A stretch of 64,000 bases of DNA, taken from Acidobacteriota bacterium (GTDB lineage: Bacteria; Acidobacteriota; UBA6911; RPQK01; G965218465). Below, piece by piece: positions 3,151 through 63,900 of this stretch. Within the stretch, counting starts at the first letter, position 1, and every line of letters starts with the position of its first letter. The stretch spans positions 2,735,152 to 2,799,151 of the forward strand of contig OZ244623.1 in NCBI GenBank assembly GCA_965218465.1, read 5' to 3'. The translations under genes were made by a program, and so were the position numbers. The notes beneath the pieces were generated by a model. That model searched no databases, was not told the DNA's origin, and saw only the letters and a program-made list of their open reading frames with translations.

Positions 3151-4623
3151 TCAGGCCAGCAAGTCGTGGATGATCTCCCCGTGGACGTCGGTGAGCCGCA
3201 TGTCGCGACCGCTGTAACGATAGGTAAGGCGCTTGTGGTCCAATCCCAAAAGGTGAAGCATGGTGGCGTGGAGATCGTGGACATGGACTTTGTTTTCCAC
3301 GGCGAAGTAACCATATTCATCGGTAGCGCCGTAAACCAAGCCCGATTTGAACCCTCCTCCAGCGACCCACATGGTAAAGCCAAAGGGGTTGTGATCTCGA
3401 CCGATTTCCTCTGTAGTGTGGGAAATTTGAGCCGTGGGTGTCCGGCCGAATTCTCCACCCCAGATGACGATCGTCTCGTCCAGCAGCCCTCGGCTCTTGA
3501 GGTCTTTAATGAGTGCTGCGATAGGCTTGTCGGTGGCACGAGCGTTGGTGCGGTGGTCTTTGATAATACGTTGGTGCTGATCCCATCGGTCTACGCCTTC
3601 GCGCCGGGGCGAAAGCAGCTCGACGAAGCGCACTCCCCGCTCAATCATCCGTCGGGCCAACAAACACTGGCGTCCGAACTCTTCCGTTTCAGGGTCGTCC
3701 AAGCCATACATTTTCTTGGTGCTCGGGCTCTCGCTTTTAAGGTCCAGTAGTTCCGGGACTTCCACCTGCATTCGGAACGCCAGCTCGTAGTTGCTGATGG
3801 TCGCTTCCAGCTGGCTCACGTGGCCCATCCGCTCGAGATTTCCCCGATTCAGCCGCTTGATCAGGTCGAGTTTGTTGCGTTGCAACTGGGCGGTGCTCTC
3901 ACGCGGCTGGAGATCGGCAATCGGCTGTTTGCCTCGACGAAACAGCATTCCCTGATAGGAGGCCGGCAAGAACCCGTTTCCGAAGACATCCACTCCACCG
4001 GGAGGAATCAACCCGCTATCCAGTACGATGAAGCCGGGAAGATTCTGACATTCGCTCCCCAATCCGTAGGTGACCCATGAGCCCATACTGGGACGACCCT
4101 GGAAACCTGAGCCGGTATGCATGAAAAAGTTGGCGGCCGTGTGTTCGGAATGGTTGGCCCACATGGAGCGAATGATGGTGAGGTCGTCTACGCAGGTGGC
4201 GACATGAGGGAAGAGCTCGCTGACGGCCGCTCCCGATTCTCCGTAGCGCTTGAAGCTGAAGGGGGATGCCAACACCTTGTTGCTGATATTGAAAACGGTG
4301 TTGGGAGTCTTAATACCGATCGGCTGCAGATTCTCTTTGGTCAGTCGAGGTTTGGGGTCGAAAGTGTCAACCTGGGAGGGTCCACCGTCCATAAACAAGA
4401 AAATGACCGACTTGGCTTTGGGGGCAAAGTGGGGTGGCTGGACAGCTAGTGGGTCGCGAATGCGATCGGCCCTTGCGGCCGCCAACGCCAGATCCTCGGC
4501 CAACATGGCTGAAAGAGCCAGTCCGCCAAAGCCATTGGCACAGCGGCAAAGCATCTCGCGGCGGCTGATGCCAGGGCGCGACAGGTCGACACGATGGGGT
4601 CGAGTGGCATAGGTCGATGTCAT
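3151..4623 (-). CDS. DUF1501 domain protein (sulfatase-like fold) with a twin-arginine signal.
   Basis: It has an N-terminal Tat motif (SRREML), a hydrophobic stretch, and the characteristic DUF1501 core (..VIFLFMDGGPSQVDTFDPKP.. WDQH.. GGEFGRTP..). It lies 22 nt downstream of the PSD1 gene. Confidence 0.9.
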   Translation of the reverse strand: MTSTYATRPHRVDLSRPGISRREMLCRCANGFGGLALSAMLAEDLALAAARADRIRDPLAVQPPHFAPKAKSVIFLFMDGGPSQVDTFDPKPRLTKENLQPIGIKTPNTVFNISNKVLASPFSFKRYGESGAAVSELFPHVATCVDDLTIIRSMWANHSEHTAANFFMHTGSGFQGRPSMGSWVTYGLGSECQNLPGFIVLDSGLIPPGGVDVFGNGFLPASYQGMLFRRGKQPIADLQPRESTAQLQRNKLDLIKRLNRGNLERMGHVSQLEATISNYELAFRMQVEVPELLDLKSESPSTKKMYGLDDPETEEFGRQCLLARRMIERGVRFVELLSPRREGVDRWDQHQRIIKDHRTNARATDKPIAALIKDLKSRGLLDETIVIWGGEFGRTPTAQISHTTEEIGRDHNPFGFTMWVAGGGFKSGLVYGATDEYGYFAVENKVHVHDLHATMLHLLGLDHKRLTYRYSGRDMRLTDVHGEIIHDLLA

Positions 4624-4645
4624 GAGTCAGATTCTCACTTGATGA

Positions 4646-7600
4646 TCATTGGATGAAGATGAACTCACTGGAGTTAAACAAAACATGACCCAGGTCGGCC
4701 CAGGGACGAAAATCGTTGGAGGCGGGATCGATCCCGTGATGGTGCTGTTGTTGCTCCAGGAAAGCCATAACCTGATCGATCTCCTTCGGCTGGGGGAGTC
4801 TGGAAAAGGCAGTGAGATACATCTGCTCGATTCTTTGCCGAGGCTGCAGCTTACCGGCAGCGACACCTTTGCCCCAGTGGGACGCTTGTTGGGTGACTAA
4901 CTCGTTGTTCATCAGCATCAGGGCCTGCGAAGGTACGGTAGAAACGCTCCGTCGTCCCAGTGTTGACGTGGGCGTGGGATAGTCGAAGGCCAGGAAGAAT
5001 AAGGGCAGAAAATTGCGCCGGATCTCAATATAGATACTGCGTCGATTGTCCCCATCGAGGGGGCCCGACTCGGGTTTGCCTCGGCCATCGTGATAAGGAG
5101 TGATGAAGGGCACGATGCTGGGTCCGAACAGTCGGCGGTCGAGCTGACCTGAAACGGCCAGGATCGTGTCGCGGATCGCTTCCGCCTCCAGCCGTTTCAC
5201 GGGCATCCGATGCAGCCAAATATTGTCGGGGTCGACAGCAGAAGCCTCAGGGCGAGGCCGGCTTGACATCCGGTAGGTGCTGGTGTTGAGGATCAGTCTG
5301 TGGAGTGCCTTGATCGACCAATCGGCCCCCAAGAACCGAGTAGTGAGATAGTCCAGAAGCTGCGGATGGGAGGGCCGTTTGCCCATCAGGCCGAAATTGT
5401 CAGGTGTCGTTACCAGACCCTGCCCGAAGTAGTGCTTCCAAACCCGATTGACCAGCACTCGGGCAGTCAAAGGGTTCTGGGGACTGGTCAACCATTCCGC
5501 CAGCGCCCGGCGGCCACTGCCCCACTGGATAGGCGCCCGGTTGTCGTTGGCGAGAACCCGCAGGAAGCCACGCGGAACGACTTCACCCAGATTTTGGTGA
5601 CTTCCACTGACATGGATCCGGCTGTCCCGCGGATTCCAATCCACTCCCACCAGGGCAAAGGCGGATTCGGGAATCTGGTCGGCCAGTTTGCGACGTTCCG
5701 TCTGCAAGAGCCGGACCCGGTTGCGACTCTTGTTGTCGAGCAGCATCGCCATCTTTTCGGGGGAGGGAAAAGGCGAGACAGCTTCTTGCAGCCAACGGGT
5801 TTCGCGATCGAAAGCCTCCTTGCCGATGTGACCCAGAAAGAGTTCTTGCAAAGACGCCGATAGCGCCGGCAGTGACTCGACCGGCTGTTGGAGCAGGTCG
5901 ACGACGTGGCGGTTGGGGCCGGCGGCCATTGGGGGTGGGGAGGGAGAATCGGAGAAAATGATGCTGTCGACGACAATATGACCCTGACGGCTTCGATCGA
6001 CAATCTCGATATAAGCCTCTCGCCTGACGCCGAATTCCTCGACCAGTTCGCTTTGCCAGTGCAGACCCTCGCCGGTTGGTAGAAAGTGAAAAGCCTTGTA
6101 GTCGCTGACAACTATGCTGACTCTGAGTTCGGCCTCTTCATCCGCGCCGGTCTCCTTGCTGCCGCCGACTCGGACGTGCACCCACGGTTTGGCCATCTTG
6201 AACCGTTTGGAGGTCAGACTACCGACCCACTCATCGGCGCCTGCGCCAAAGGAGTTGGCGACTCCACTGCCCTGATGGCCCCGTGCCGGCTGGTTAGGGG
6301 GCAGCCGTCGTTGAGGTCCGCCGGCGAACGCCTCCCCGTCGACCGCCCAGCCGGAAAAGTCGATTCGCTCAAAGTCCTCGAAGATCTGATCGCCACGCTG
6401 ACTTTGCAGGGCTGCAGAGGATTCTCCCCGGAGTGACGTTAACTGCGCTGCCAGTTCGTCCCTGACTTCTTCCAGCGGGCGGACCGGCCACTCATTGCCC
6501 CGGTCGGCCAGCCGCGCCACCGGGTGAAAGACATGCTCGGGATCGTCACAGGCTTCCTCCAGGTAGCGCGTCCACACCCACGGCAAATGAGACAGGTCTT
6601 TTCCCTCTCGATGCGACTCCTGCGGGGGATGGCTTTGCCAGATCTGACTGGCCGCTTTGCTCAAATCATCCGTCAGTCGTTCGACCAACTGTTGCCGGGC
6701 TGGGACAAGCTGATCCGCGATCTCGAGGTTAATCTCGAAAATGCGGCTGGCCAGGGAACGCAAGCGGGCGCTACGTTGGGGAGAGTCGATCACTTTCTCT
6801 CGGACGTTGGTGCTGTGGAGAATCCCGGCCATGGCGTAATAGTCGGCGGTGGGAATCGGATCGAACTTGTGATCGTGGCAACGGGCACAGGCGACAGTCA
6901 ACCCCAGAAACGCCTTGCTCAGCACGTCCAACTGGTTGTCCACTTGATCGGCCCGCGACAGGTCGGAGTCGACCGGACTGTTGAGGACTTCGCCAAACCA
7001 GAGAAAACCGGTGCCGATGGGTGATTCCCAGTGGGTCCCGTCCAGGCTGATGCGCTGCTCCGGCAAAAGATCCCCAGCGATATGCTCCCGAACGAATTGA
7101 TCGTAGGGAACATCCTGGTTGAAAGCACGAATGACATAGTCGCGATAACGCCAGGCATCCAGCTTGTCGTTGTCAAACTCGTGGCCGTTGGTTTCGGCAA
7201 AACGCACCAGGTCGAGCCAATGCCGGCCCCAACGCTCGCCATAATGGGGAGAGGCCAGCAAGCGGTCGACGACTTTTTCAAAGGCATCGGGAGAGTCATC
7301 CGCCAGAAAATCTTTCAGTTCGGCGGGCGAAGGAGGAAGGCCGATCAGATCAAAAGTCACCCGGCGCAGGAGACTGGCCCGGTCAACCGGCGGTCCCGGC
7401 TCTAGTCCTTGCTTTTCCAGCCCCGCCAACACAAAGCGATCGATGGGATGGCGCGCCCAACCGGTTTTCCGGACGGGTGGCGGCTCTTCCTCGCTCAGAG
7501 GTTGAAAGGCCCAGAATTCCCGTCCTGCTTCAAGGTCGATCCCGGCGGAATGACCCGCCTCGTCTTCGGCCATCGGCACAGCCTCGGGCAAGGGAGCTTC

Positions 7601-8050
7601 CATTTCAACCCATTCGATCAGACGCTGGATCTTTCGATCCTCGAGTTTGCCGCTGGGAGGCATCCGCAAGTCAACGGCCCCGTAGGAGACGGCCTCGATC
7701 AGCAAGCTCAAATCGGGATAGCCCGGCTCGATCACCGGTCCTTGATTGCCGCCTTTTCGAATCCACTCCGGCCCATCCAGGCGGAGATTTCCCTTGGGTG
7801 GGAGTTCCTGATCGCTGTGGCATTGGTAGCAGTGCTCGGCAAAAATGGGTCGAATATTCTTCTCGAAGAACTCGACTCCCGCCGCGTCCTCTTGCGGCGT
7901 CGAGCGGCCGGCGCCCGCCCAGGTGTCCGGGGCAATTAGAGCGATCGACAATGCCCCGGTTACCAGCGTGTTCACGAGCAAAAAATAAGTTTGGGAGAGG
8001 TCGCGTATTTCTTTTTTGTGATTCTGCTTTGAGATGGTCACGACTTGCAA
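4646..8050 (-). CDS. PSD1-type protein: Planctomycete cytochrome c (PSCyt) + DUF1549 + DUF1553 domains.
   Basis: The 1134-aa ORF has an N-terminal membrane anchor and a CxxCH heme motif in FFEKNIRPIFAEHCYQCHSDQ. The long DUF1549/DUF1553 body is present. This is the classic partner of DUF1501. Confidence 0.9.
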   Translation of the reverse strand: MQVVTISKQNHKKEIRDLSQTYFLLVNTLVTGALSIALIAPDTWAGAGRSTPQEDAAGVEFFEKNIRPIFAEHCYQCHSDQELPPKGNLRLDGPEWIRKGGNQGPVIEPGYPDLSLLIEAVSYGAVDLRMPPSGKLEDRKIQRLIEWVEMEAPLPEAVPMAEDEAGHSAGIDLEAGREFWAFQPLSEEEPPPVRKTGWARHPIDRFVLAGLEKQGLEPGPPVDRASLLRRVTFDLIGLPPSPAELKDFLADDSPDAFEKVVDRLLASPHYGERWGRHWLDLVRFAETNGHEFDNDKLDAWRYRDYVIRAFNQDVPYDQFVREHIAGDLLPEQRISLDGTHWESPIGTGFLWFGEVLNSPVDSDLSRADQVDNQLDVLSKAFLGLTVACARCHDHKFDPIPTADYYAMAGILHSTNVREKVIDSPQRSARLRSLASRIFEINLEIADQLVPARQQLVERLTDDLSKAASQIWQSHPPQESHREGKDLSHLPWVWTRYLEEACDDPEHVFHPVARLADRGNEWPVRPLEEVRDELAAQLTSLRGESSAALQSQRGDQIFEDFERIDFSGWAVDGEAFAGGPQRRLPPNQPARGHQGSGVANSFGAGADEWVGSLTSKRFKMAKPWVHVRVGGSKETGADEEAELRVSIVVSDYKAFHFLPTGEGLHWQSELVEEFGVRREAYIEIVDRSRQGHIVVDSIIFSDSPSPPPMAAGPNRHVVDLLQQPVESLPALSASLQELFLGHIGKEAFDRETRWLQEAVSPFPSPEKMAMLLDNKSRNRVRLLQTERRKLADQIPESAFALVGVDWNPRDSRIHVSGSHQNLGEVVPRGFLRVLANDNRAPIQWGSGRRALAEWLTSPQNPLTARVLVNRVWKHYFGQGLVTTPDNFGLMGKRPSHPQLLDYLTTRFLGADWSIKALHRLILNTSTYRMSSRPRPEASAVDPDNIWLHRMPVKRLEAEAIRDTILAVSGQLDRRLFGPSIVPFITPYHDGRGKPESGPLDGDNRRSIYIEIRRNFLPLFFLAFDYPTPTSTLGRRSVSTVPSQALMLMNNELVTQQASHWGKGVAAGKLQPRQRIEQMYLTAFSRLPQPKEIDQVMAFLEQQQHHHGIDPASNDFRPWADLGHVLFNSSEFIFIQ

Positions 8051-27746: not shown

Positions 27747-29438
27747 CTACTCTCCACCAGGAATCAACAAGATCTGCCCCGGGAAAATGCGGTTGGCGTT
27801 GCGGAGCCGGTTCAGTCGCTGGATTTTGGCGATCGAGGTGTTGAAGCGGCGGGCGATCCATTGCAATGTGTCACCTATACGGACTCGGTAGCGGGTGGGA
27901 AGGGATCCGTTGCTGGGGACCTTCAGCTCGCGCCCCACAACAATGTGGTCGGTGTTGGAAATGGAGTTGTGTTCACGTAGCCGCTTGACTGACGTCTTAT
28001 AGCGTGAGGCGATCGACGACAAGGTTTCTCCGGGTTGAATCCGATGAGTGATCAGTTGTTCTGCCTGGCGAGCTGAGGCGATTTCCAGAATTTGACCGGC
28101 ATAGATCAAGTCCGGTCGCGGCAATTGATTGACCAATTGGATCCGCCGCGCGGAGGTGCCGAAGCGACTCGCGATTTCACTCAAGGTGTCTCCCCGACGC
28201 ACTCTGTAGGTCCCGGGACCCGGCGCGACTTTGCGAGGCACGACGGCCTTGAGCAGCGGCAAACCCGCCACCAGTTGGTTGGCTGCTTGGGCTGGCAGCC
28301 GCAGCTCGATCCTCGGCGGCAGAACGCCGTAGCGCCAAACACCCGTCCTCAGGAAGGGATTGTGGGTCTTGACCCAGGCGAGACCTGCATTGGCCGTTGC
28401 CAGCAGATCCTTGACCCGGTAGGACTTATGTAGTTCGACGGTGGAAAACCGCCAGGGTGGGTCGGTTTGCAGGTTTGGGAAATAGCGGTGGCTGTTGCGG
28501 GCCACCAAGACTGCCGCCAGGAATTCAGGGTAAAAGTTTCGGCCGCTGAACCCGAAGGTCCTGGAGCGGTGGTTGGAGACGATGCGGTGGAGTTCGGGTC
28601 CCCACCGCTTTCGAGCCCGCAGCATTGCATTGAGACCCTGATTGTAGGCAGTGATTGCCAGCGGCCAGTTTCCCAGTTTCTCATAATTGTATCGCAGTAA
28701 CTTGGCAGCGGCGCGAGACGCATAGAGTGGGTCAAGCCGTTGATCTTGAGTGCGATTGATTGTCAGGTAGATCCTGCCCGTTCCGCGGATAAATTGCCAC
28801 AGACCCACTGCACCCGCTTTGGAGCGGGCCTTTGAATTAAATGATGATTCGACGTGAGGTAGCATTGTCAGTTCCATCGGTAGACCGAACTCCCGAAACA
28901 TGGGCTCGATGTGCTCGAGGAACTGGCCCGAGCGGACTATACCCGCCTCGAATTTCTCCCTGACCCCTCGTTGCATCCGGATGTCTCTTTGGAGACGAGC
29001 GTAGAACCGGCGTGAAGGCTTGTATCCCAGCGATCGCAACAGTTTGGCCAGACGTCGTGAATCCTGGGTCAGGTCTTTCTCTGAACGGGCGGTTGCCATG
29101 GTTCTTAGCTGGCGGACCAGCTTTAGCCGGTAGCGTTTGAGTTGGCGCCTCTGACGGGCCGCCTCGCGAGCATTCTTGTGTGGGTCCCGTTCGAAACTGA
29201 CGACCTTGTAAATTATCCTCAAATCTCGGCTATCGTGAAATATGACTTGGCGTCGACTGTAGCGGGCAAATACTTCCTTCCAGAACTCGATTTCCGATTC
29301 AAACTCCTGGAAGGGGAAGTGGTGAGCCACACTCTTCAACTCGAAGTCTCGGGCCCACGAGGCAGTCATCGCCAAACTAGTCGAAAGCAGTACCAGGAGG
29401 GTCCGACCAAGGACCCGCCTGAGGGGATTTGGTGTCAA
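27747..29438 (-). CDS. Membrane-bound lytic murein transglycosylase (MltD-like) with three C-terminal LysM repeats.
   Basis: It has a signal peptide, an SLT catalytic domain (..AKSKAGAVGLWQF..) and three LysM units (YRVRRGDTLSEIASRFG, HRIQPGETLSSIASRYK, YRVRIGDTLQWIARRFN). The start codon overlaps the stop of the upstream CMD gene. Confidence 0.8.
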   Translation of the reverse strand: MTPNPLRRVLGRTLLVLLSTSLAMTASWARDFELKSVAHHFPFQEFESEIEFWKEVFARYSRRQVIFHDSRDLRIIYKVVSFERDPHKNAREAARQRRQLKRYRLKLVRQLRTMATARSEKDLTQDSRRLAKLLRSLGYKPSRRFYARLQRDIRMQRGVREKFEAGIVRSGQFLEHIEPMFREFGLPMELTMLPHVESSFNSKARSKAGAVGLWQFIRGTGRIYLTINRTQDQRLDPLYASRAAAKLLRYNYEKLGNWPLAITAYNQGLNAMLRARKRWGPELHRIVSNHRSRTFGFSGRNFYPEFLAAVLVARNSHRYFPNLQTDPPWRFSTVELHKSYRVKDLLATANAGLAWVKTHNPFLRTGVWRYGVLPPRIELRLPAQAANQLVAGLPLLKAVVPRKVAPGPGTYRVRRGDTLSEIASRFGTSARRIQLVNQLPRPDLIYAGQILEIASARQAEQLITHRIQPGETLSSIASRYKTSVKRLREHNSISNTDHIVVGRELKVPSNGSLPTRYRVRIGDTLQWIARRFNTSIAKIQRLNRLRNANRIFPGQILLIPGGE

Positions 29439-30010
29439 CTTTGAACTCCCAAAGCCGAGGACTCCGAATCAACCGACTCGGGTTCGGGGTCGATTCCCAG
29501 AGCGTCAGCCACCCGGTTGATGTAATTGAAAAATCCGATGATATGAACGATCTCCAGAATAGCCTTCTCGTTGAAACCAAACGAACGCAGGCGCTCCAAC
29601 TGATCGCGACTCACTCGATCAGGCTTAACGGTGAGATCGTAAGCATAGTCAAGCAACGCTCGTTCGGCGGGGGCAAGTGAGGCGGTCCGATAGTCATTCT
29701 TAAGTGCCTCCACCAATTCCCGGTCTTGAGTTTCAGCATGGAGATCCTCTCCATGAGCTATCGTTCAATAAAAGCAGCTATTGGCCCTTGACACCACCAC
29801 CGCCAGCATCTCCCGTTGTGCCCGGGTGAGTGATCCAGGCCCATGCATCAAGGTGGTATAGAACGCCATCGAGTCACGAATGTATTCGGGCCGCTGGCTT
29901 GAGATGCTGACAATGTTGAAAATCTTCCCCGCCCGCTGAAGGGCGGCATCGTATTGTTCCCGCAGCAGTCCCCGGGCTCGCTGCAAGCAAATGGTGCGGA
30001 TCCAAGCCAT
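29435..30010 (-). CDS. Carboxymuconolactone-decarboxylase (CMD)/AhpD-family peroxidase-related enzyme with an in-frame UGA. It is a candidate selenoprotein, with Sec in an N-x-C-x-Y-U-x-x-x-H motif.
   Basis: ORFs 29765..30316 and 29435..29716 are in the same frame and separated only by TGA at 29767..29765. The read-through product ..REMLAVVVSRANSCFY-U-TIAHGEDLHAE..LLDYAYDLT.. matches the CMD family motif with the second Cys replaced. The start is the ATG at 30010 (GGAAGG 8 nt upstream). A hairpin lies 9 nt after the UGA. Confidence 0.6.
29737..29755 (-). promoter_or_regulatory. SECIS-like stem-loop immediately downstream of the in-frame UGA.
   Basis: The mRNA has CAUGGAG-AGGAU-CUCCAUG: a 7-bp perfect stem (8 bp with the inner A:U pair) and a 5-nt apical loop containing GG. 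The loop starts about 20 nt from the U of UGA, within the range of bacterial SECIS elements. Confidence 0.5.
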
Positions 30011-30011
30011 C

Positions 30012-30629
30012 TTAACCTTCCGGACCTCTTTCCGGGTGTTTGTTACCATTGAAGTTGGCGAACAGGCAGAAGAGAATTTCTTGCGTGATCTGTTGGGGCG
30101 TCTTGTTGTCCACGTCGACCACCCACTCGGCACACTGATACTGTGACTGCCGTTGATGGTAGAGGGTCTCAAAGCGGAGCAGATCTTGGGCCAAAGGCCG
30201 TTTTCGATCTCCCAAGCAACGGGAGCGGCACAGCTCAAGACTGATCCTGAGCCAGATCGTGCGACCGTTGGACCGCACCTGAGCACGATTGGTTTCGCCG
30301 GTGAGGGTGCCTCCACCCAATGCGATGACTGCGGGCGGAAGCCTCAGGCAGCGCGCCAGCATCTCCCGCTCGAGTTGCCGGAAACCGGCTTCCCCCGCGT
30401 CGGAAAAAATCCTGGGAATCGATTTGGCCGCTGCAGCTTCGATCAGGGCGTCCAAGTCGATAAAATGCCGCTCGAGCCGCTGTGCCAACAGCGGTCCGAC
30501 AGTGGATTTTCCGCAGCCCATGAATCCTGTCAAGAACAAATGGGTTCCAACCGCGGTTTGGGTTGGATGATCAGCGGTCACAGAGCGACTCCAAAGTCTC
30601 GAAAAAGCCTGGAAAGGAGACAGTTGCAC
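30012..30629 (-). CDS. aroK: Shikimate kinase.
   Basis: It has a P-loop GFMGCGKSTVG and a shikimate-kinase lid. The true start is probably downstream of 30629 (for example the GTG at 30581), because the listed start overlaps aroA by 59 nt. Confidence 0.8.
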   Translation of the reverse strand: MQLSPFQAFSRLWSRSVTADHPTQTAVGTHLFLTGFMGCGKSTVGPLLAQRLERHFIDLDALIEAAAAKSIPRIFSDAGEAGFRQLEREMLARCLRLPPAVIALGGGTLTGETNRAQVRSNGRTIWLRISLELCRSRCLGDRKRPLAQDLLRFETLYHQRQSQYQCAEWVVDVDNKTPQQITQEILFCLFANFNGNKHPERGPEG

Positions 30630-57974: not shown

Positions 57975-60900
57975 TCACCGTTCCACCGGCACCACCGGCA
58001 GCGTGGTGAAGATGCCGTTGCCGGCATCCAACTCCACTGCCACTCCCGTGAACTCTCCCTCGGCCGTGCAACGCACCAACCCCACGAAGTCCGTCGTGTC
58101 GGTACGGGTGAACACCTCTTCAATGAAGCGGCCATCCTGACCGTTGACCTCCAGAGTGATCTCTTCCTCTTCCAGCACTTCGCCCTCTTTCATCAGTTGG
58201 CAACTGACCACCAGCTCTTCGGCTTCCAGGTTGCGGATGGCTGCTGCGGTACTGATGCCTCCCTCCTGTCGCCGGGCCGGAAAGAGGGCATCCGTTAAAG
58301 GTTGACCGGTTCCCACTCCGGCCACTCCAACCCCCGGCAGGTCGAAGCGCAGCACCCCTCCGATGGGACCTTCGGCAACCACCCTGACCGATCCCGCCAC
58401 CACCTCTCCTTGACCGTGGGTGGAAATCGTCACTGCCTCCAGCGGTTCCAGCTCGTTCTGAATGGTTAAGCCTCCGTCCTCTGCCACTTCCAGCTCTCCC
58501 GTGACCTCCAGCACCGATTGGGCTGCAATCCTTTCGCCTGCCCGATCGTAGAAGTAAAAGCTGGGACGGGTGGGAGGAATGGGCGTCGTAAAGGGACCGG
58601 CAGGACGACTCGGCCGGATGGACACATTGACCAACACCAGATCGGAGGTAATGGAAGCACCATTGGCGAAGTGGGCAAAATCAAGGGTGTACTCCCCGCC
58701 TCTGAAGACCGTCCGGTCCACCGGCAGCACCGGCAAGGTGGTGAAGATCCCGTGGCCGGCATCCAGCTCCACTGCCACTCCGGCAAACAGTTTTCCCGCG
58801 GGTGCGGTGCAGCGCACCATCCCCACAAAGTCTGACGTGTCGGTCGTAGTAAACACCTCTTCGATAAAGCGGCCATCCTGCCCCTTGGCCTGCAGCTCGA
58901 TGTCCACTTCTTCCAGCACCGCGCCCTCTTGCATCAACCGGCAACTGACTACCAGCTCCTCCTCTTCCAGGTTGCGGATGGCTGCCGCCGTGCTGATGCC
59001 TCCCTCCTGCCGCCGGGCCGGAAAGAGGGCATCTCTTAAAGGTTGACCGGCTCCCACTCCGGCCACCCCACCCCCCGGCAGGTCAAAACGCAGCACCCCT
59101 CCGATGGGACCGTTGGAGAGGACCGTCACCGATCCCGCCACCACCTCCCCTTGACCATGGGTGGAAATCGTCAGTGCCTGCAGCGGTTGCATCTCACTTT
59201 GAACAGTCAAGCTTCCGTCCTCGGCAATCTCCAGCTCTTCGGTGAGCTCCACTACCGACTCGGCTGCAATCCTTTGCCCTTCCCGGTTGTAGAAGTAAAG
59301 CCAGGGACGGATGGGATGGGGAGCGACGTTGACCAACACCAGATTGGACGTAATGGAAGAGCCATTGGCGAAATGGGCAAACTCCAGTCTTCCCACTCCC
59401 GGAGTCACCTCGATCTGGTGGGAAGAGCTGCCGGCGCCGGCCCCGCTGACCGCCCGCACCTGCAAGACGTAAAGCCGGCCGTTGACCAGCTCGGTGACCG
59501 TATGAGTGGTCTCGGTCGACCCGGTGGATATCCAGCCCCTGCCCGACCTGCTGATCAGATACTGGTAATCGGCAATCGCAAAGCCGCCGTCGTCCTCCGG
59601 CGCCTCCCAGGAGAGTGTCACCTGCTCGTCTCCACCCACCGCTTCCAGATTCCTGGGCGCTGACGGCACCGGGTTGGGAACGGGAGGGGGACCGCCGCCG
59701 CCGGGAGGTGGAGATGGCGTCGTCTGCACCGTCTCCACACCACCATAGCCCAGGGCGTTCACCCCCCGCACTTCGAACACGTATTCCCTGCCGTTCGTCA
59801 GGTTGGGCACCGTCGCGGCCCTCTCCACCGGGGCAACCCTTATCCAGTCGCCGGACATCCCGCCGGGCTCCGTCCAGCGGTATTCGTAGCGGACGATCGG
59901 AGCGCCGCCGATGTTCTGCGGGGCATTCCATCTCAGCGTCACCCGGCCGTTGCCAGTGCTGGCCGTCAGACCGATCGACGAGATCGGCACCGTCACCCCC
60001 GGCGGCGCCACTCGGACCGCAATAGTCGCCGCCTCGTTCGGCCTGTTGTCTACGACCGATGTCACTCTGTTCGCACGCACTGAGATTGTGAGGGTGTAAT
60101 TGTGTGCCACACTTGCGGTCCTCGGGGCCACGGTGGTGGTGAATATCCGGTCATCCGTGGTCTGCAATGCCGTAATGGTTGGATCGCAGGAAACCGGGTT
60201 GTTTGCGCTATCCGTACAGGGAGGTTCCTGCTGCGTAGCAATATCGTCGCTGGTGAAGCCCCTCACCGCCTCCGAAAAGCTGAACCGGAACGTGAACGGA
60301 CCCTCCACCGGCGTCGGCGGGTCCGTTGTCATCTGAACCCTCAGCGGGACGATGGTCCTCCCCTCGCCCGGCTCCGACCAATTACTCCTCCCTTCCTCGT
60401 TGCTCGCCCGCACCTGCACCTGGTAGACCGTGCCCTCTTTCAGTCCCGTGAGCATCGCCGTCAGGGCCGGGCTCTCGTGCTGCGCATCGGTGAAGACGCC
60501 GCTGTCGCCGTCCCGGTACTGCACGTCGTAGTCGGTGATGGGCGGCCCGCTATTGTCCGGTTCTCTCCAGCTCACCCTCAGGCTGTCCTCCGTCTCCCCT
60601 GAAAATGTCGGAGCTTCCGGGACACCCGGCGGTTCCCGCTCGTTGCTCACCCTGACCGTAATCACCTGCTCTGCCGTCAGCTCCCGGTCCCCAGCGCCAC
60701 TGGTCACGCGCGCCGTCACCACGTACTCGTTGTCCTCCGCCCCGCTCGGCGGATCGCTGCTCACGACATCGGTGGGGAACTCATAGTCCGGCGCCTCCTG
60801 GAAACTCAGATCTCCCGTATCGGAAGCGACCGTAAACTGCGACCGGTCAACCCCGCCCACGATCGCCCAGCCCGTCACCTCGTCCCCTGGGTCGACATCC

Positions 60901-63900
60901 CTCGCCGTCAGCCGGGTCACCCGCGCCTGATTCTCAGTGACCTCGAACGGCCCCCGGCTCGTGATCTCCGGAGCCGTGTTGGGCGCCCCTGTGGTGTTGG
61001 TCACCGGTTCGTTGCTCAGTCCCAGAGCGTCGTTGCCCACCGCGTCCCGGATCGGGTTCGTCCCCGGACTGTAGCTCACCCGAATCCCCGTCTCCCCATG
61101 CTCCACCGCCGGGTCGAGGGTCAGTTCCACCGCGCTCCCGCTTACCGCAACGTTGGTGACGCTCCGCTCAGCGCCCTCGACATTCACCGTGAAGTCCCCT
61201 GTCCCCGGCCTCGAACTCCCGTCCAGAGCCTCTCCGTAGGTCAGCGTCAGTTCGGCCTCGTTCACCGCCGCGCTCTGAAACACGGGCTTGACCCCGTCCA
61301 TTCTGTGAGCCGCATCGGCCGCCAATCCGTCATGGTCCAGTACGGCGTCATTGTCCGCGCCGTCCTGGATGGTCCCCCCGTTCAGGTCAATGCGGCCGGC
61401 AGCAATGCTCACCCCGTCGGTGTCTTCGTCCCCCAGGGCCACCTCGTAGCCGAACACCGGCGCCGACGTGCCACTGCCTCTCAGGTAGCCCGCCGGCCGG
61501 TTCCTGCTTCCTACCTCGAGCCTCAACTGCGGTGTCTTGGTCACCGCCACCGTCTCATCGAACGTCACCGTTACTTCGATCACATCGCCCACGCCATAAG
61601 TCTGGTTCGTCCCCGGACTCGAGGTGATCTCGATTCCATCGATCATTGGCGCCGCCGTGTCCGGCGTATCGTTCCTTACCGTCTCGTTGCTCAGTCCCAG
61701 AGCGTCGTTGCCCACCGCGTCCCGGATGGGGTTCGTCCCCGGCGTGTAGCTCACCGTGATCCCCGCCTCTTCGTGATCGGCTCCCGAATCCAGGGTCAGC
61801 TCCACCGTCGCGCCTCGAACCGCGACCCGGGTGACTGTCCGCACATGATCGGCCCCCGCAACCGTGAAGTCATCCGTCTCCGGCGTCGAGCCCCCGTCCA
61901 GCGTTTCGTTCCAGGTCAGCGTCAGCGTTGCCCCGTCCACCACCGCGCCGCCGGTGACGGCCAACTCCGGCTTGACCCCGTCCACCTTGTGGCTCGAATC
62001 AGCCGCCAACGCCTCATGGTCCAGTACGGCATCATGGTTCACGCCGTCCCGGATCGTTCCGCCGTTCCGGTCGATGCTGCCGGTAGCAATACTCACCCCG
62101 TCGATGGCCAGGTCGCCGCTCGCTACCGGGTAGGCGAACACCAGCGTTTCGCTGTTCGAACCGCGGTCGTAGGTCGCTGGCTTTGTCTGCGCCCCCACCG
62201 TCAGGGACAACCCCGGCCGCCCCGTCACCACCACGGCTTCATCGAATGTCACCGTCACCTCGATCACATCGCCGGGAGCGTAGATCGCATCCGGCCCCGG
62301 ATTCGAGGTGATCGCCACCGTGCTCACCACCGGTGCCTTGGTATCCACCGGGAACACCTCGCTCGCCGCCAGGTTGCCGTTGCTCAAAGCGTCCACCACC
62401 GCCCCCGCCGTCACCGTCACCCTCACGTCATCCTCAATGCCGGCGTTCGGCGTGATCTCGAGGGTGTAGACCGCACCCGCGCCCGTGAAGTTCGACCCCC
62501 TACCGTTGGTCACCGCGATCTCGCTCGCTTCAAGACCCATTACCAGCTCCGAAAAGGTGATCGTCACCGTGAACCCGTCCTTGGTCGGATGGGTCGCACT
62601 GCTCGTGATCGACGCCACGACCGGGCCTGTGGACCGGGCAGGGATGATATGCGAGTCGGGAACTTCCGTCAGCACGGTTCCGTCAGCGGTGCAGATGCCG
62701 TCCGAGGCGCAGGGCTGGCCGGCAACCAGGGCGAAGCTAATCGGGCCAACGCCCGTGGGAGTCAGGGTGAAGAGATAGGCATTGGCCGGGTCTCCAGGCG
62801 CGACATGGGGGCTGATGCCGGCGATCGTCGCGCCGGTGACGCTGACCGACGTCGTATCTGCAGCAAAGTCCACCACGGGCCGGCTGAAGGCAACCGCCAC
62901 CTTCGGTGCATCGGTCGGGCCGAGATGGAATAGGGAACTGGCAGGACTCTCGACGATCTCCGCCGTCAGCGGGCCGGGCGTGTCCGCCAGCGCCACGAAC
63001 TCCACCGGGTAGGCCCGGGTGGTCCCGGCCTCATTGGGGCCAGCGTAGTGGTCGGGATGCGTGATCTTAAAGGCAAGCAGTTCTTCGTTGGTGAGTGGAT
63101 CGACCTCGGTCACTGACGCGTCCGAGACACGAGACGACGTGCCGCGGCCCCAACTGATCAGCCAATGGCCGCTGTCCATGCGATGGATGTGGCCCTGGGA
63201 TCTCGAAACCCGATCACAGGTGTTGCCCGAGCAATGCTGGCGCACAAAGACCGCCTCACCGTTGTCGGGGTCGAGCGCATACTCCACGCCGCGGCTGAAC
63301 TCCGAATTCGGTCGTTGGGTGTCGCCCGTCTCCGGGTCTTCAAGGCAGTGGTTGCCGTTGTCGAAGAGCAGGAGATGCCCGTTGGGTATCAGCCGGGCGG
63401 AATGCTGCCCGCAGAACTCTCCGTGGGGATCGCCGACGATCTTGAGCGTCCGAATGCCGTGCGCCTCCCACTCCGCGTCGCTCCGGTTGCTCCGTCCCAA
63501 CAGCCATTCCCCGGCTCCCGTTTCGCGGTCGATCCGCCACACCTGCGAGCAGCCGCGGAAAGAGGCGATGATGTCCGCCTCGTCCACGACCTGCACCGAG
63601 TTGATGTGGGCGTAATCGATGGGAAACCGGTGCTGGAGACAATCGTTCAGGTACATGTCATCCCACGAGTTCCAGAAGAAGACGCGGCTTCCCGCCGGGT
63701 TCACTTCTTCGATGACCGAGTCCGACGTATTTTCGCTAGTGCCGTATGGATCGCCGTTCTCATCGGTATAGGCGCTGAAGTCACGGATGGCGGGCTCGTA
63801 GGCCTCGAAGACGTAGTTGCCGTTCTCTCTGATCACAAAGTCGTGGGTGCCGGTGTGTTGGAGATCGTCGGTGGTCGTGACCCTCTCCACCACGTCAAGG

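Follow-up and report, generated by a model that had tools for sequence, protein, structure and literature searches.

A Candidate AhpD-Like Selenoprotein Gene with an In-Frame UGA Codon and a SECIS-Like Hairpin in an Acidobacteriota Bacterium

Introduction

The DNA considered here (hereafter, the window) is a stretch of 64,000 nucleotides (nt) from an Acidobacteriota bacterium, taken from contig OZ244623.1 of GenBank assembly GCA_965218465.1. On its minus strand lies a gene for an AhpD-like protein whose reading frame is broken once, by a TGA codon at the position of a catalytic cysteine, and a small hairpin follows this codon. Judged from sequence comparison, the locus is very probably one functional gene for a 191-residue AhpD-like selenoprotein (TIGR01926, COG2128, CMD fold) in which UGA is decoded as selenocysteine (Sec).

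As the first-pass annotation of this DNA had held, the family is an established prokaryotic selenoprotein family. An AhpD-like protein (COG2128, CxxU) was reported in 2005 from the Sargasso Sea as a new selenoprotein family of 27 sequences with a predicted bacterial selenocysteine insertion sequence (SECIS) (PMC1088965), and by 2008 the family ranked fourth in abundance in the Global Ocean Sampling data, with 299 sequences (PMC2398784). A 2026 review carries the entry "AhpD-like protein, TIGR01926, CxxU" (PMC13188914), and the family can be browsed in BSepDB (PMC13326102). Selenoproteins had also been recorded earlier in Acidobacteria (PMC1794560).

The Gene and Its Active Site

The features of the gene, all on the minus strand, are as follows.

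29435..30010, minus strand: complete coding sequence of the predicted AhpD-like (TIGR01926) selenoprotein, made up of 191 codons, one of them UGA (Sec), and a terminal TGA stop (from sequence and translation)
29810..29812, minus strand: codon of Glu67, the relay glutamate, 12 residues ahead of the first Cys; role per PMC3141380
29774..29776, minus strand: codon TGC of Cys79, first Cys of the CxxU redox pair
29765..29767, minus strand: in-frame UGA, predicted Sec codon; residue 82, the second position of C79-F-Y-U82
29756..29764, minus strand: spacer of 9 nt that separates the UGA from the hairpin base
29753..29755, minus strand: codon CAT of His86, the relay histidine, 4 residues past Sec; also the first three bases of the hairpin
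29737..29755, minus strand: SECIS-like hairpin, with 5' arm CAUGGAGA (29755-29748), loop GGA (29747-29745), and 3' arm UCUCCAUG (29744-29737)

The frame opens at ATG 30010-30008 and closes at TGA 29437-29435, and its sole interruption is the TGA at 29767-29765. The first-pass annotation had described two same-frame minus-strand open reading frames (ORFs) parted only by this codon and amounting to 191 residues when read through; the sequence agrees, and the read-through product includes ..VVVSRANSCFY-U-TIAHGEDLH... For profile searches, Cys was put in place of U. The protein then matches NCBIfam TIGR01926 ("peroxidase-related enzyme") over its full length, at 162.2 bits against a cutoff of 81.8 (residues 5-178 on profile positions 4-178 of 178), and Pfam CMD (PF02627) at 42.5 bits against a gathering score of 23 (residues 41-122), as the proposed family and fold would have it. 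The Pfam CMD match fixes the fold only and is silent on decarboxylase activity. Membership of three other families was considered and rejected: canonical AhpD, TIGR00777 (16.3 bits, cutoff 191.95); NF041238 AhpD_rel_CFYUT (65.2 bits, cutoff 175, with only profile positions 199-341 matched by a protein of 191 residues); and NF053654 GroundWater_YciW (seleno)protein (39.9 bits, cutoff 310).

Both halves of the gene belong to the same fold by homology. The Cys-form structure 2pfx in the PDB aligns across residues 19-178 (E = 1e-28), covering both sides of the UGA, and the solved Cys homologues 2PFX, 2OYO, 6K40, 2PRR, and 3C1L align over about 160 residues with E = 1e-24 to 1e-28. All five have Cys at the UGA column (..NKCFYCLVAHG..), as do the homologues P0004, P0006, and L046, so that the UGA falls, as had been claimed, at the second Cys of the motif N-x-C-x-Y-C-x-x-x-H. 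Alignment with 24 homologues leaves E67, Y81, and H86 invariant and C79 conserved in at least 90%. The resulting spacing (Glu, 12 residues, Cys-x-Tyr-[Cys/Sec], 3 residues, His) gives E67/C79/Y81/U82/H86 and equals that of the relay residues Glu118/Cys130/His132/Cys133/His137 in Mycobacterium tuberculosis AhpD and Glu36/Cys48/Tyr50/Cys51/His55 in Pseudomonas aeruginosa PA0269 (PMC3141380). A Cys-form subgroup (L046:10244-10246; P0008, P0010) is without the first Cys (..NSTRYCTIAHWHDYR..) and has a single Cys, at the Sec position.

TGA serves elsewhere in the window as an ordinary stop. Among 33 confident genes, 16 end in TGA, 9 in TAA, and 8 in TAG, and the TGA at 29765..29767 is the only one to lie in frame within any of them. 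Because TGA is the commonest stop of the window and is found in frame only this once, the codon is not reassigned genome-wide, and reassignment was rejected as an explanation. A scan of the window for other TGA-split frames gave about 100 matches, all of them junctions between genes or frames that do not code, and none is a second selenoprotein candidate.

Conservation of the UGA and Gene Order

Relatives were sought in one genome per GTDB species. At least 558 were found, and for the best 80 the codon at the UGA column was parsed from the tblastn alignments. The aligned codon is TGA in 79 of these 80 loci and TGC in the remaining one, with alignments in frame on both sides; alignment of Cys and Sec orthologues at the UGA was a check that the first-pass annotation had named beforehand. 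The best 80 loci span Acidobacteriota, Latescibacterota, Planctomycetota, Chloroflexota, Actinomycetota, Myxococcota, Marinimicrobia, and others; among the matches listed, the closest named genomes to this locus are metagenome-assembled genomes (MAGs) of Acidobacteriota. The TGA is also present in near-identical copies of the locus (a near-identical genome is in ENA assembly ERZ25072670) and in an orthologous locus of 80% identity, L002 (ERZ25069347). Against L002, the ratio of nonsynonymous to synonymous divergence (dN/dS) is 0.19 before the TGA and 0.22 after it, at a dS of 0.4-0.6, a pattern that indicates purifying selection on both halves of the gene.

The genes and the putative initiation signal that flank the coding sequence are the following.

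30012..30581, minus strand: aroK (shikimate kinase), upstream neighbour, a 189-residue gene call with Pfam SKI; synteny in L002, L007, L008, and L010
30016..30021, minus strand: GGAAGG, a Shine-Dalgarno-like site (so read from the sequence, with presumed function) 5 nt before the ATG, within the end of aroK
27747..29438, minus strand: MltD-like lytic transglycosylase with LysM repeats, downstream neighbour (Pfam SLT and LysM; synteny)

The gene order uvrB-aroA-aroK-[TGA gene]-mltD-(clpB) is retained in L002, L007, L008, and L010. The locus and its TGA persist in L007, L008, and L010 even though UvrB identity there is down to about 73%. The gene had been described as packed between its neighbours by overlapping stop and start codons, a description that holds on one side at most: the aroK stop TAA at 30014-30012 is followed by one spacer base and then the ATG of the selenoprotein gene, with no overlap, and on the MltD-like side a TTGA overlap holds only for a start at TTG 29438. 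In public gene calls, the MltD-like gene of L002 starts at the equivalent of TTG 29438 (562 residues), and that of L001 starts 23 codons later (540 residues). Neither ahpC nor any other peroxiredoxin gene borders the selenoprotein gene.

The Hairpin After the UGA

The first-pass annotation had also pointed to a hairpin of 7-8 base pairs (bp) starting 9 nt past the UGA. The position is exact. Present in the minimum free energy fold and in the centroid fold, the hairpin can be drawn as a perfect 8-bp stem with a 3-nt loop or as a 7-bp stem with a loop of 5 nt, and its first loop base is the 18th nt past the UGA. It is composed of codons H86-G-E-D-L-H91 and the first base of A92. Sixteen genes, mostly acidobacterial, share HGEDL(H/R) at this place and are termed type A here (consensus CAYGGRGA-GGA-UCUCCRUG); the 9-nt spacing is the same in all of them.

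Within type A, RNAalifold run unguided predicts the same helix, and 93% of cells are paired, against 25-58% in controls in which the 3' arm was slid. Pair 15-29 joins the third base of the His codon to the second base of codon 91, and 12 of the 16 genes have C-G there and the other 4 U-A, with no mismatch; the corresponding codon contexts are CAC..CGU/CGC (12 genes) and CAU..CAU (4 genes). Synonymous choices in the stem are fixed in 16/16: Glu is GAG (45% in the background), Asp is GAT (35%), Leu is CTC (28%), and Gly is GGA or GGG (47%). The stem Arg codon is CGT in 10 of 12 cases, compared with 12% in the background. Between this locus and L002, the hairpin region is identical at 30/30 nt, set against a gene average of about 83%.

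A second hairpin was found in the other 65 genes, which come from other phyla. The two types were compared over loci L007-L086 in the 48 nt from the TGA. Type B, GACCUC-CGKGNN-GAGGUC, lies 18 nt past the UGA, with 94.9% of cells paired and compensatory C-G to U-A changes at two pairs. Of the 61 Leu codons at its Leu site, 59 are CTC, and the Arg of its loop is CGG or CGU in 66/66, never CGC, the background favourite (42%). Both types contain a CUCC tract, which forms the 3' arm in type A and the 5' arm in type B. Some Actinomycetota (GAGGGCGC) seem to have a third, longer pairing. As judged from codon choice and covariation, the hairpin RNA is under selection in the type A and type B groups alike.

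Link to the Selenocysteine Machinery

Direct neighbours of some homologues belong to the Sec pathway. In nine actinobacterial loci (L022, L041, L043, L054, L062, L063, L067, L073, and L075, from MAGs of Gaiellaceae, Thermoleophilia, or Actinomycetes), selB and selA are encoded on the opposite strand, 1-4 kb downstream of the homologue (E = 1e-54 to 1e-88 with E. coli proteins as queries). In 7 of the 9 (not L063 or L073), tRNA-Sec with anticodon UCA lies within 10 kb upstream of the homologue; in two loci it is within about 150 bp of the gene start, and the nearest is only about 40 nt away. No selD was seen in the flanks of the nine loci. On gene order, the family-level tie to selC, selA, and selB is direct.

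The two hairpin types and the sel-linked loci invite a broader proposal, namely that two non-homologous SECIS hairpins serve one UGA through arm switching and that the enzyme encoded near sel genes could serve selenium metabolism. This combination is unlikely. If true, it would show clearly how one SECIS can replace another within a coding sequence when an arm is switched, and the sel-linked enzyme of Gaiellaceae/Thermoleophilia-like Actinomycetota could handle, for example, selenide or selenenylsulfide intermediates instead of taking part in general peroxide defence.

Misannotation of Homologues

The first-pass annotation had expected automated annotators to divide the gene, and public gene calls do break it in two, as 94 + 92 residues in L001 and 94 + 108 residues in L002. 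Many matches in protein databases are likewise fragments of 105-118 residues beginning just past the motif (MEAHGEDLR...), and other database homologues are full length with "W" at the Sec site (P0001, P0002, P0003, P0005, P0009, P0011, P0012, P0018, P0019, P0021, and P0024). For P0001 (L006, JGI 3300082281, codon 681-683), the DNA reads TGA, and the stored protein differs from the translation by table 11; the gene caller apparently used a code with TGA as Trp on short contigs. The entries just listed with Trp at the Sec site are mistranslated selenoproteins, with P0001 as the entry for which the DNA is given.

A different case is P0013 (L005:570-572, GCA_049685715.1, a Terriglobia MAG), which has a genuine TGG (Trp) in an otherwise intact homologue. 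Arg occupies the Sec position in P0016, as seen at the protein level only; a CGA codon would be one step from TGA. Both P0013 and P0016 may be recent Sec-loss variants or sequencing errors.

In practical terms, the analysis matters for annotation. Public MAGs store this gene and hundreds of its orthologues either in two pieces or, which is worse, at full length with a false active-site Trp, and a corrected annotation gives a redox enzyme back to such genomes and marks them as selenium users.

Weighing the Selenoprotein Assignment

Several observations weigh against the assignment. A 61-nt fold around the hairpin is no more stable than shuffled sequences (z = -0.95). The hairpin falls within conserved codons (HGEDLH), so the protein accounts for part of its conservation. 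The Cys-form P0004 (TGC) and the Trp-form L005 (TGG) retain 7/8 stem pairs, the latter with one G-G mismatch. A permissive search of Rfam over 29600-29900 returned no match; a general family for bacterial SECIS elements seems to be absent from Rfam. Finally, selA, selB, selD, and tRNA-Sec were not found within the 64-kb window, which is the part of the 3.19 Mb contig that could be searched, by ARAGORN, by Rfam at gathering thresholds, by Pfam on the called genes of about 8.7-57 kb and on the ORFs at the ends, or by tblastn with E. coli SelA, SelB, and SelD queries; the sole tRNA of the window is for Ala.

The significance of the hairpin comes from comparison with other genomes and not from the stability of a single sequence. 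The contrast between Cys and Sec forms is not clean, because P0004 and L005 keep 7/8 pairs; the Cys-form P0006 retains 1/8, and few Cys forms occur within the clade. P0004 and L005 may be recent conversions that carry a fossil SECIS.

Among the rival explanations, the one that survives best is that the UGA is read without Sec, either by near-cognate or suppressor insertion of Trp, Cys, or Gly or by leaky read-through, stimulated by the hairpin, in a lineage without Sec. A window that holds none of the Sec machinery leaves room for this explanation, and so does the TGG variant of the Terriglobia MAG, which hints that a non-redox residue is perhaps tolerated at least transiently. It is nevertheless improbable: the site is the catalytic second Cys of CxxC, where Trp or Gly would destroy the redox pair, homologues sit in selC and selB-selA clusters, TGA is the main ordinary stop of the window, and the family is a recognised selenoprotein family.

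Two further explanations are each very unlikely. In the first, the gene is a decaying pseudogene, the TGA being a nonsense mutation in a former Cys CMD gene that now yields an 81-residue product or nothing, as the two fragments of the gene callers and, again, the lack of Sec machinery in the window might suggest. Such decay is hard to reconcile with the same TGA in 79/80 related species, with a downstream half that has a dN/dS of 0.22 against the 80%-identical orthologue and neither a frameshift nor a further stop, with synteny and TGA kept across deep acidobacterial divergence, and with selection on synonymous sites of the hairpin. In the second, the locus encodes two small proteins, an 81-residue N-terminal peptide and a C-terminal protein of about 93-108 residues made from an internal TTG or other start, which is how ORF lists and gene calls display it. 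Against this, the CMD/AhpD fold of the solved homologues is a single chain over residues 19-178, the active-site helix would be severed between Tyr81 and His86, and the internal start is not conserved, the fragment calls beginning at different, non-homologous codons just past the TGA. Least credible of all is an assembly or sequencing error for a true TGC, TGT, or TGG, for which a one-base change in a metagenome assembly would be enough, but TGA in identical context recurs in three more assemblies: two independent ones, L001 and L003 (99% identical), from this organism or a near-identical one, and one from a related species (L002). An exact protein match places the window on contig ctg836578_50x_c of ENA metagenome assembly ERZ25067264, a name that indicates about 50x coverage.

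Proposed Mechanism

Under the selenoprotein assignment, the conserved hairpin 9 nt past the UGA would serve as a bacterial SECIS and bring SelB-GTP-Sec-tRNA(Sec) to a ribosome paused at the UGA. Sec would be inserted at position 82, and the outcome would be the whole protein instead of an 81-residue stub. By homology, Sec82 would stand in for the second Cys of CxxC within the relay Glu67/Cys79/Tyr81/Sec82/His86 and would be the reactive nucleophile, activated by a relay of Glu67, His86, and water. Sec82 may then attack either peroxide or the sulfenate or disulfide of an oxidised peroxiredoxin partner, after which Cys79 would resolve the adduct to a selenenylsulfide, itself to be reduced by a thiol system. 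The enzyme would in this way reduce a peroxiredoxin partner or reduce peroxide directly. We infer the actual insertion of Sec in this organism, the interaction of SelB with the hairpin, and the enzymatic activity and substrate.

Other Features of the Window

Three further regions of the window were noted.

3151-8050, minus strand: adjacent genes for a DUF1501 protein (490 residues) and a 1134-residue PSCyt1/DUF1549/DUF1553 protein of the "planctomycete cytochrome C" type
38.6-57 kb, plus strand: a long same-strand block with the nuo operon for NADH dehydrogenase, F0 genes of ATP synthase (atpI, a, c), and the cytochrome c maturation genes ccmE, F, H, A, B, and C
57975-63893, minus strand: a very large ORF of 1972 residues, in which an arylsulfotransferase-like N-terminus precedes Big_12, SWM repeat, cadherin, and fibronectin-III domains

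Pairs of DUF1501 and PSCyt1/DUF1549/DUF1553 genes are common in Planctomycetota, Verrucomicrobiota, and Acidobacteriota. The nuo/atp/ccm block coincides with a strongly negative AT skew (-0.15 to -0.23). Around the 1972-residue ORF, G+C reaches up to 64%; no identical product of this ORF is on record in the gene-call collection.

Comparison with Known Systems

The bacterial SECIS, for example that of E. coli fdhF, is a SelB-binding hairpin immediately 3' of the UGA. Like the fdhF-type element, the hairpin described here lies inside the coding sequence, a few nt past the UGA, and has a small apical loop containing G. The bacterial SECIS consensus of Zhang and Gladyshev (Bioinformatics, 2005) is said to have its loop within 16-37 nt past the UGA, a range that includes the first loop base here, at the 18th nt. 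The fdhF-type element differs in its loop, which is GGUC where that of the present hairpin is GGA, and a bulged U is not evident here.

On the protein side, M. tuberculosis AhpD (TIGR00777) and PA0269 have the same five-residue relay geometry in sequence. They differ from the present protein in subfamily, chain topology, and oligomer, and no ahpC lies beside this gene. NF041238 has the C-F-Y-U-T motif and the CMD core in common with it, but is a family of 357 positions of which only the C-terminal domain is matched. The Cys-form proteins 2PFX, 2OYO, 2PRR, 3C1L, and Deinococcus radiodurans DR1765 (6K40) share the identical motif N-x-C-x-Y-[C/U]-x-x-x-H-G; these have Cys where this gene has UGA, and need no recoding signal. 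Loss of DR1765 leads to H2O2 sensitivity, and the CxxC cysteines are required for complementation (PMC8945050).

The first-pass annotation had seen the organism and the locus as what was new. That claim is weak, as uvrB-aroA-aroK-[TGA gene]-mltD is already present in public Acidobacteriota MAGs. The gene is a new member of a long-known family at a locus that is already public, split or unannotated, and it leaves current knowledge of selenoproteins unchanged; such novelty as there is, and it is mild, lies in the two alternative hairpins for one UGA and in the adjacency to sel genes in some Actinomycetota. Its nearest counterpart is the "AhpD-like 1" family (Zhang, Fomenko and Gladyshev 2005; Zhang and Gladyshev 2008), which is the same hidden Markov model family with the same CxxU Sec position, is widespread in uncultured bacteria, and has, as here, a bacterial-type hairpin just past the UGA with a G in a small apical loop. 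Nothing essential differs between the two, and the present copy, from an uncultured Acidobacteriota-like genome, carries the acidobacterial-clade variant of the hairpin, with a stem formed from the HGEDL(H/R) codons.

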